DNA of 51,594 nucleotides, taken from a virus. Taxonomy: Duplodnaviria > Heunggongvirae > Uroviricota > Caudoviricetes. Numbering within the stretch: position 1 is the stretch's first letter; the number at the start of each line of letters is the position of its first letter. Location of the stretch: IMG/VR virus record IMGVR_UViG_2563366877_000002; one strand, 5' to 3'. The notes beneath the pieces are model-generated. The model saw only the letters and a program-made list of their open reading frames with translations, ran no database searches and was not told the DNA's origin. The translations under genes were made by a program, and so were the position numbers. This document shows, piece by piece, positions 47,484 to 49,955 of the stretch.

Positions 47484-49955
47484 ATGAGTAAAGTCTTTAT
47501 TTGCGCCGCTATTCCTGACGAACTGGCAACAAGGGAAGAAGGCGCTGTGGCTGTAGCCACAGCCATTGAAGCTGGCGACGAACGCCGTGCTCGAGCAAAA
47601 TTTCACTGGCAATTCCTGGAACATTATCCGGCTGCTCAGGACTGCGCTTATAAATTTATTGTCTGCGAGGATAAACCTGGCATACCCCGCCCTGCCCTCG
47701 ATTCATGGGATGCTGAATATATGCAGGAAAACCGCTGGGATGAGGAGTCTGCTTCTTTTGTCCCGGTTGAGACTGAATCCGATCCGATGAACGTCACTTT
47801 TGACAAGCTGGCCCCTGAAGTACAGAACGCTGTCATGGTTAAGTTCGACACATGTGAAAACATCACCGTTGATATGGTTATTAGCGCACAGGAATTGTTG
47901 CAGGAAGACATGGCAACATTCGACGGACATATCGTTGAAGCGTTGATGAAAATGCCAGAAGTTAACGCCATGTATCCGGAGCTTAAGTTGCACGCCATTG
48001 GGTGGGTTAAGCATAAATGTATTCCTGGTGCTAAATGGCCCGAAATTCAGGCAGAGATGCGCATCTGGAAAAAACGTCGCGAAGGTGAACGCAAGGAAAC
48101 CGGAAAATACACGTCTGTTGTTGATCTCGCCCGCGCCAGAGCCAATCAACAGTACACTGAAAATTCAACAGGAAAAATCAGCCCGGTCATTGCTGCCATT
48201 CATCGCGAATACAAGCAGACATGGAAAACACTGGATGACGAACTGGCCTACGCTCTCTGGCCTGGTGATGTGGATGCCGGAAACATTGACGGCAGCATCC
48301 ATCGCCGGGCAAAAAATGAAGTTATCGACAACGACCGCGAAGACTGGAAGCGTATCTCGGCATCAATGCGCAAACAGCCTGATGCCCTTCGCTACGACCG
48401 CCAAACTATTTTTGGCCTTGTCCGTGAGCGTCCGATCGACATTCACAAAGATCCCGTAGCACTGAACAAATATATCTGCGAATACCTGACGACAAAGGGC
48501 GTGTTTGAGAATGAAGAAACAGACCTGGGCACTGTTGATGTTCTCCAGTCATCAGAAACACAAACTGATGCAGTGGAAACTGAGGTATCTGATATCCCAA
48601 AAAATGAAACCGCGCCGGAAGCTGAACCATCTGTAGAGCGTGAGGGGCCGTTCTATTTCCTCTTCGCAGATAAGGACAGAGAAAAATACGGTCGCGCAAA
48701 CAAACTTTCTGGTCTGGATAAGGCACTGGCTGCTGGCGCCACTGAAATCACAAAAGAAGAATATTTTGCCCGAAAAAATGGCACATACACGGGCTTACCG
48801 CAAAATGTAGATACCGCTGAAGATTCAGAACAACCAGAGCCGATAAAAGTTACCGCTGACGAAGTAAACAAAATTATGCAGGCAGCCAATATCATCCAGC
48901 CTGACGCCGATAAGTTGCTTGCTGCATCACGTGGTGAATTTGTTGAAGGGATTAGTGACCCGAATGATCCGAAATGGGTTAAGGGGATCCAGACCCGCGA
49001 TTCTGTGAACCAGAACCAGCATGAATCGGAACGGAACTACCAAAAAGCGGAACAAAACAGCCCAAATGCGTTACAAAACGAGCCAGAAACGAAACAGCCT
49101 GAATCAGTGGCGCAACAGGAAGTGGAAAAAGTCTGCACCGCCTGCGGTCAGACCGGCGGCGGCAACTGCCCTGATTGTGGCGCGGTAATGGGCGACGCAA
49201 CATACCAGGAAACATTCGATGAAGAGTATCAGGTTGAAGTTCAGGAAGATGATCCGGAGGAAATGGAAGGCGCTGAACATCCACACAAGGAGAACACTGG
49301 CGGCAATCAGCATCACGATAGCGATAATGAAACTGGCGAGACGGCAGATCACTCAATTAAGGTGAACGGTCATCAAGAAATCACATCCACCAGCAGGACG
49401 TGTGACCATCTAATGATCGACCTTGAAACCATGGGAAAAAATCCTGATGCCCCGATCATCTCAATAGGTGCAATATTTTTCGATCCGCAAACCGGAGATA
49501 TGGGACCGGAATTTAGTAAGACTATCGATCTGGAAACTGCTGGCGGAGTCATTGATCGGGACACCATTAAATGGTGGCTTAAGCAATCACGCGAAGCGCA
49601 ATCTGCCATTATGACCGATGAAATCCCGTTGGATGATGCACTGTTACAATTGCGGGAATTTATCGACGAAAACTCCGGTGAATTTTTTGTTCAGGTCTGG
49701 GGAAATGGAGCCAACTTCGACAACACGATTTTGCGCCGTTCATACGAACGGCAGGGGATCCCCTGCCCGTGGCGTTACTACAACGATCGCGATGTACGCA
49801 CAATCGTTGAGCTGGGGAAAGCCATAGACTTCGATGCCAGAACGGCTATTCCATTCGAAGGTGAGCGCCATAATGCACTTGATGACGCCCGTTACCAGGC
49901 AAAATACGTTTCAGTTATCTGGCAAAAACTGATCCCGAGTCAGGCTGATTCTTAA
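47484..49955 (+). CDS. ydfE: large YdfE-like protein: acidic N-terminal region, C4 zinc ribbon, C-terminal DEDDh 3-prime to 5-prime exonuclease domain
   Basis: 823 aa from [30 protein letters not shown]; exo motifs DLET, GNGANFD, HNALDDA. Confidence 0.7.
   Translation: [823 protein letters not shown]

Follow-up and report, generated by a model that had tools for sequence, protein, structure and literature searches.

An intact ydfE at the Qin locus

The window analysed here is the whole of the 51,594-nucleotide Caudoviricetes record IMGVR_UViG_2563366877_000002 of IMG/VR, and the gene under study is a single, uninterrupted open reading frame (ORF) of 823 codons (Table 1). This gene is the intact ydfE of a Qin-type lambdoid prophage and the last gene of the dicBF early-left operon before xis and int. 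Residues 1-255 of its product match YdfE of Escherichia coli K-12 at 255 of 255 positions. In K-12, the gene (b1577) lies in the Qin prophage beside rspB; IS2E overlaps it, its annotation is that of a pseudogene, and everything from residue 256 onward is gone, the nuclease included. At the same chromosomal locus strain A38 has, in order, dicA, ydfABC, dicB, ydfD, the full-length gene, xis, int and rspB, and the window therefore represents an undamaged Qin-type prophage arm. These comparisons bear out a first-pass annotation made from the sequence alone, which had supposed the gene to be the full-length form of a truncated K-12 remnant and had placed it between dicB-ydfD and xis-int, where both the ORFs and the annotation of near-identical loci put it.

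The gene is already known as an entity. Its boundaries agree with those of the RefSeq 'exonuclease' and of the phage HannyBb annotation, the phage family profile PHROG 2082 ('exonuclease') matches 1-822 of its 823 positions, and near-identical database proteins carry the Pfam families PF27430 (YdfE_N), PF27432 (YdfE_C) and PF16473, the first two as precomputed for a 94%-identical cluster representative. The RefSeq product names are 'exonuclease' or '3'-5' exonuclease', with many copies called '3'-5' exoribonuclease'. It is also an extremely common prophage gene: of 5426 complete E. coli genomes, 3537 contain a full-length match (at least 80% nucleotide identity), as do 17 phage records, among them HannyBb, PhiR42_1, Tritos, mEp460 and Evi, and 1854 complete-genome E. 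coli records match at 99% identity or more. The only disrupted copies are that of K-12 (L003:4079-4999), cut by IS2E, and one from PPompW_EH1846 (L014:3001-5468), annotated as frameshifted. Moreover, DnaQ-type nuclease genes near int have already been reported in lambdoid phages by a 2025 survey (PMC12315714). The description of the protein as uncharacterised holds: a literature search yielded no biochemical or genetic work on this YdfE-type protein. The architecture itself is already in the catalogues named above. The sequence had been read correctly, and the gene is not a new kind of system.

Table 1. Features of the ydfE locus in the window (dN/dS, ratio of non-synonymous to synonymous substitution rates; AF2, AlphaFold2; sRNA, small RNA)
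Feature	Residues	Positions	Strand	Basis and remarks
DicF sRNA		46789-46840	+	Rfam RF00039, 76.7 bits; upstream, same operon
dicB		47015-47203	+	ORF list; annotation of near-identical loci; upstream, same operon
ydfD		47200-47391	+	ORF list; annotation of near-identical loci; upstream, same operon
Shine-Dalgarno-like GAGG		47472-47475	+	Read from sequence; 8 nt upstream of ATG
Intact ydfE-type gene		47484-49955	+	ORF list; 823 aa plus stop
Small alpha/beta domain	1-100	47484-47783	+	N-terminus; within part with Pfam YdfE_N/YdfE_C matches
Helical domain	105-210	47796-48113	+	AF2 model; partly common to Gifsy/HK225-type RecE; dN/dS 0.08-0.10
Helical 'mid' domain	246-345	48219-48518	+	AF2 model; aligns with K-12 RecE from 278; dN/dS 0.13
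Conserved block GPFYF...GRANK...EEY.ARKNG	386-440	48639-48803	+	dN/dS 0.08-0.11; flanked by fast-evolving acidic linkers
RecE-like motif	474-506	48903-49001	+	RecE alignment; in most relatives; dN/dS 0.03-0.19
C-x2-C-x7-C-x2-C zinc ribbon	551-566	49134-49181	+	Nearly identical in K-12 RecE; dN/dS 0.13
Acidic linker, scaffold to nuclease	567-640	49182-49403	+	Composition; dN/dS about 1, nearly neutral
DEDDh (DnaQ-like) Rv2179c/DexA-family 3'-5' exonuclease domain	642-813	49407-49922	+	PF16473; DexA alignment
Exo I, DLET	646-649	49419-49430	+	Sequence motif
Exo II, GNGANFD	740-746	49701-49721	+	Sequence motif
Exo III, HNALDDA	796-802	49869-49889	+	Sequence motif
Excisionase (xis)		50028-50279	+	ORF list; annotation of near-identical loci; downstream
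Integrase (int)		about 50314-51594	+	ORF list; annotation of near-identical loci; downstream

No plus-strand promoter-like site was found between dicB and the exonuclease gene, so the gene is probably co-transcribed with the dicBF operon, annotated as DicA-regulated. Inspection of the sequence gave no convincing internal ribosome-binding site before Met644 that could yield a free nuclease domain. An inverted repeat (GCCGGTTG ... CAACCGGC, 49964-49998, plus strand), a few bases past the stop codon and ahead of xis, may serve as a terminator or as a regulatory hairpin. The window also contains 7 Chi sequences (GCTGGTGG) in mixed orientation between 30897 and 49394, one of them inside the exonuclease gene (49387-49394, minus strand), where shuffled sequences give about 2. 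The density in E. coli is roughly one Chi per 4-5 kb, and by this rough figure the count in the 51.6-kb window does not exceed that of the host. It has been suggested that lambdoid phages devoid of a recombination module have many Chi sites and rely on RecBCD and Chi (PMC12315714); the seven sites may be relevant to that suggestion, although their number is unremarkable.

A RecE-family scaffold followed by a DEDDh exonuclease domain

The protein is acidic, with a computed isoelectric point (pI) of 4.6 overall and 4.3 for residues 351-630. Most of it upstream of the nuclease is related to RecE (exonuclease VIII) of the Rac prophage, which acts with RecT. Residues 262-625 align with residues 278-591 of K-12 RecE (BLASTP, E 1e-62, about 40% identity), and the last 150 or so aligned residues, zinc ribbon included (C551, C554, C562 and C565), are nearly identical. 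The homology stops at residue 625, just ahead of the PD-(D/E)XK nuclease domain of RecE. Further upstream, residues 136-336 match residues 323-525 of HK225 RecE (BLASTP, E 1e-17). The NCBIfam RecE model NF007259 matches only over its positions 271-602, with 283 bits against a cutoff of 1269. Neither PF12684 (PD-(D/E)XK), which K-12 and HK225 RecE do match, nor the Exonuc_VIII N-terminal domain PF06630 has a match in the window protein. The RecE-like segment, which lies at residues 474-506, the ribbon preceding the nuclease and a likeness to RecE outside its nuclease had all been noticed at first reading; the homology turns out to be far longer. Like the window gene, Rac recE belongs to the early-left operon and lies shortly before xis-int, and its product has the same scaffold with the conserved motif and ribbon; unlike RecE, the window protein lacks PF06630, the PD-(D/E)XK nuclease and an adjacent RecT, and its predicted polarity, 3'-5', is opposite to the 5'-3' polarity of RecE. 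The role of the non-nuclease part of RecE is likewise unexplained (PMC11611040).

Residues 1-350 were modelled by AF2 with 18 diverse homologues, and the confident result (mean predicted local distance difference test score, pLDDT, 87) has three parts, residues 1-100, 105-210 and 246-345, with a disordered linker between the two helical domains. The last of these, the 'mid' domain, is present in every architecture class of RecE-family proteins examined, and the 386-440 block also occurs in the relatives P0126, P0134 and P0129. Segment-wise dN/dS, computed against the copies of mEp460, Evi and 640R1, divides the protein sharply: seven blocks (residues 1-100, 101-210, 246-345, 386-440, 474-506, the ribbon and the nuclease, the last with 0.16-0.18) are strongly constrained at 0.03-0.19, whereas the acidic linkers, those flanking the 386-440 block included, are near-neutral at 0.67-1.1. 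We had considered that the ORF might be an artefact, that is, two genes mis-assembled into one or a decaying pseudogene. That explanation is refuted, and we give it a negligible chance, because the same uninterrupted ORF is present in thousands of complete genomes and in the 17 phage records and because strong purifying selection acts on both sides of the scaffold-nuclease junction. It is one real gene, as the first-pass annotation had taken it to be.

Synonymous divergence (dS) is very uneven along the gene (compared with L013, L015 and L006); in the nuclease domain, for example, it is 0.05 against mEp460 and 1.06 against Evi. Such jumps between segments, together with the sharing of only the 3' half of the gene with phage 640R1, imply recombination breakpoints inside the gene, at or close to the acidic linkers. 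One relative, P0121 (527 aa), is 96% identical over residues 1-385 and then continues almost directly into the nuclease, the 386-630 blocks and the ribbon being absent; either the 386-630 region is dispensable or P0121 is a deletion derivative.

The C-terminal part carries a DEDDh exonuclease domain, as the Exo I, II and III motifs had suggested. Pfam PF16473 (Rv2179c-like) matches it over profile positions 2-177 of 177 (E 2.5e-67, 226.4 bits against a cutoff of 27), and all five catalytic residues, D646/E648, D746 and H796/D801, align with D7/E9, D119 and H186/D191 of DexA (exonuclease A) of phage T4. From this catalytic domain a metal-dependent 3'-to-5' exonuclease is predicted. DexA (PDB 8KEL), a phage-encoded 3'-5' DNA exonuclease of the same DEDDh subfamily, is the sole solved structure detectable by sequence (E 1.6e-6). 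It is only 27% identical to the window domain and is a stand-alone protein of 227 aa with extra loops. DexA, the nearest characterised relative, acts on DNA, in the scavenging of host DNA and in double-strand-break processing during intron homing (PMC12153337). A stand-alone, 190-aa version of the window nuclease domain, 59-60% identical to it, is encoded by phage PhiR47_1 (L011:4998-5570), an unrelated temperate phage in which it follows ea22-like genes; the fusion junction of the window protein coincides exactly with the N-terminus of this free-standing nuclease.

The name exoribonuclease, given to many RefSeq copies, raises the possibility that the enzyme acts from 3' to 5' on RNA, trimming, for example, host RNAs or the dicBF transcript, which is heavily processed. 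The Pfam family is indeed named for the exoribonuclease Rv2179c, and the DicF sRNA is encoded upstream of the gene. However, the name has been propagated from the domain and not from an assay, Rv2179c was not detected by the sequence search of solved structures that retrieved DexA, and the scaffold is common to DNA enzymes only, namely the RecE nucleases and a probable Rad52-like annealase described below. We regard an RNA substrate as improbable.

A second alternative comes from EcD ('HREX'), a stand-alone E. coli homologue of DexA that is reported to digest T4 DNA containing 5-hydroxymethylcytosine (5hmC) and to protect against T4 (PMC12153337). The 17-mer of the published forward primer recovered a 189-aa protein that starts with MIDTET and has the expected Ala78, and that is probably EcD; the published reverse primer had no exact match in IMG/VR. 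Such EcD-like Rv2179c-like exonucleases of 189 aa were seen on the IMG/VR contigs L018, L023, L033, L034, L036 and L039. Like the window nuclease, EcD belongs to PF16473 and is an E. coli, prophage-associated protein; the EcD-like protein lacks the scaffold and is 38% identical to the window nuclease domain. The DexA residues for 5hmC recognition are not conserved in the window protein: Tyr766 stands in place of W152 and Ala780 in place of D169, the alignment near D169 being uncertain at 27% identity, while D90, the 'tetramer' Asp, is kept as D718. The EcD-like protein has Trp at the first of these positions and Ala at the last.

The window protein might accordingly be a prophage anti-phage nuclease whose DEDDh domain degrades the DNA of superinfecting phages, for instance at modified cytosines. 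Such a role would suit the Pfam family common to EcD, DexA and the window nuclease, the reported protection by EcD and the persistence of an intact gene in most E. coli genomes, and the neighbouring dicB reportedly blocks some phages. It is less easily reconciled with the low identity to the EcD-like protein, with the residues that differ at the DexA W152 and D169 positions, with the Asp retained at the D90 position, and with a search of PADLOC-DB 2.0 in which no defence-protein family matched the window protein at E 0.01 or better. Its operon is annotated as DicA-regulated, the gene has no promoter-like site of its own and, by analogy with Qin, it is presumably silent in the lysogen; in addition, viable temperate phages carry its closest relatives, in a slot for lytic-cycle genes. 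A defence function appears unlikely to us, if slightly less so than a function on RNA.

Exchange of domains among the scaffold relatives

With residues 1-630 as query, 248 relatives were found among 1.84 billion representative proteins, and the scaffold family is therefore narrow. Full-length relatives were sorted into classes by domain probes. Their N-terminus is either YdfE-type or RecE-type (PF06630), and their C-terminus is of four kinds: the DEDDh domain, the PD-(D/E)XK nuclease, a domain of about 290 residues that we call type C, and a fourth, unidentified domain. Either N-terminal type occurs with either nuclease, so that all four pairings are represented, which shows that the RecE-family front end is a freely shuffled scaffold. 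For example, the 'exodeoxyribonuclease VIII' of vB_EcoS-640R1 (813 aa) and the proteins P0128, P0142 and P0238 are also RecE-scaffold/DEDDh chimeras. They share the C-terminal half of the window protein and the context dicB-ydfD-gene-xis-int, while their first 200 or so residues are of the RecE type, with PF06630, and not of the YdfE type. Only the 3' half of the gene is shared with 640R1, at 98% DNA identity from query nucleotide 1361.

The neighbouring genes track the C-terminal domain and not the N-terminal type. RecT follows the PD-(D/E)XK forms whatever their N-terminal type and is absent beside every DEDDh form examined. The DEDDh forms are directly followed by the excisionase and then, except in phage Evi, by the integrase, and the type C forms by a Sipho_Gp157 gene.

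The type C domain is probably a Rad52-like annealase. Eight of 13 members show sub-threshold matches to Pfam Rad52_Rad22 at its signature helix (best E 0.003), and the family is colinear with residues 46-161 of human RAD52 (the sequence identical to PDB 1H2I/1KN0) over 115 columns (hhalign, E 0.019); this evidence as a whole lies below curated thresholds. An AF2 model of the domain consists of a helix, long beta-hairpins, a helix and then a helical bundle. Should this assignment hold, the identifiable partners of the scaffold would all be DNA-recombination effectors. Carriers of the domain were seen at L005:4974-7106 and L008:4001-6226 and among the proteins P0134, P0129, P0183, P0230 and others. 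They probably correspond to the 'RecE-2' proteins of the 2025 survey, which reported neither a nuclease domain nor a known role for them (PMC12315714). What is added here to the catalogued gene is this map of domain shuffling, the finding that RecT tracks the PD-(D/E)XK domain and not the scaffold, and the probable annealase fusion in sister proteins.

The same distribution bears on whether the window enzyme could be the exonuclease half of a conventional exonuclease-annealase recombinase, with an annealase encoded at another place in the same prophage or provided by a different one. The gene does lie in the recombination-gene region, in a slot that holds exo-bet in lambda and recET in Rac, and is in part related to recE. 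However, in agreement with the first impression that no annealase is adjacent, the early region from repressor to int contains no annotated gene of the RecT, Bet, Erf or Rad52 type, either in this prophage or in five related phages, and RecT is tied to a nuclease domain that the window protein lacks. Moreover, a 3'-5' nuclease leaves 5' overhangs, the wrong substrate for the known Red/RecET annealase pathway. The lack of an annotated annealase in these early regions and the wrong polarity make such a pair very unlikely.

A possible role and its meaning

On balance, we consider it somewhat probable that the protein is a DNA 3'-end-trimming exonuclease of the lytic programme, targeted or assembled by a RecE-family scaffold and working without an annealase of its own. 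We infer that it works from 3' to 5', that its substrate is DNA rather than RNA, and that it helps to process the DNA ends of phage or host. The protein would be made on prophage induction or infection, from the DicA-repressed early-left operon. Along the scaffold of about 630 residues, acidic linkers connect three predicted folded domains, a zinc ribbon and two short conserved blocks; the position that RecE fills with its PD-(D/E)XK 5'-to-3' nuclease is taken by a DEDDh nuclease of the DexA/Rv2179c type. This putative Mg2+-dependent exonuclease would strip nucleotides off free DNA 3' ends, with the scaffold supplying targeting or assembly and no dedicated annealase being required. Intact copies occur in free-living phages, HannyBb, Tritos and mEp460 among them, and DnaQ-type 3'-5' nucleases have been found in or near lambdoid recombination modules (PMC12315714).

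Several points weigh against a DNA-end-trimming role. Rv2179c, the founder of the Pfam family, has been described as an exoribonuclease, so that RNA may be the substrate. DnaQ-type 3'-5' exonucleases usually inhibit homologous recombination (PMC12315714, citing Lovett 2011), and the authors of the same survey did not count nuclease genes beside int as members of the recombination module (PMC12315714). Targeting or assembly by the scaffold is a guess, because structure comparison gave no informative structural relative for the N-terminal domains. The frameshifted prophage copy and the destroyed K-12 copy imply that the gene is dispensable for the host and that resident prophages tolerate its loss, and the proposed role is itself a prediction for this protein.

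A broader idea, which we hold only tentatively and think rather less likely, is that the scaffold is a general adaptor that delivers interchangeable DNA-end effectors to one shared target, for example a host protein or a DNA structure; the effector would be a nuclease of 5'-3' or of 3'-5' polarity, or else a fused Rad52-like annealase. If this were true, the DEDDh form would be a so-far unstudied, annealase-independent system of opposite polarity, and would shape the way in which Qin-type phages handle DNA ends, host RecBCD or competing elements.

Whichever role applies, the gene is among the commonest prophage genes of E. coli, full-length in about two thirds of complete genomes, while K-12 holds only a wreck of it; it has probably gone unstudied because the laboratory strain carries only this remnant. 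The N-terminal part of RecE is retained in the full-length RecE used for direct cloning (linear-linear recombination), and the YdfE-type protein offers a natural experiment on that unexplained part, with the same scaffold placed on a nuclease of opposite polarity. Learning what the scaffold binds could explain both RecE and the YdfE-type protein.

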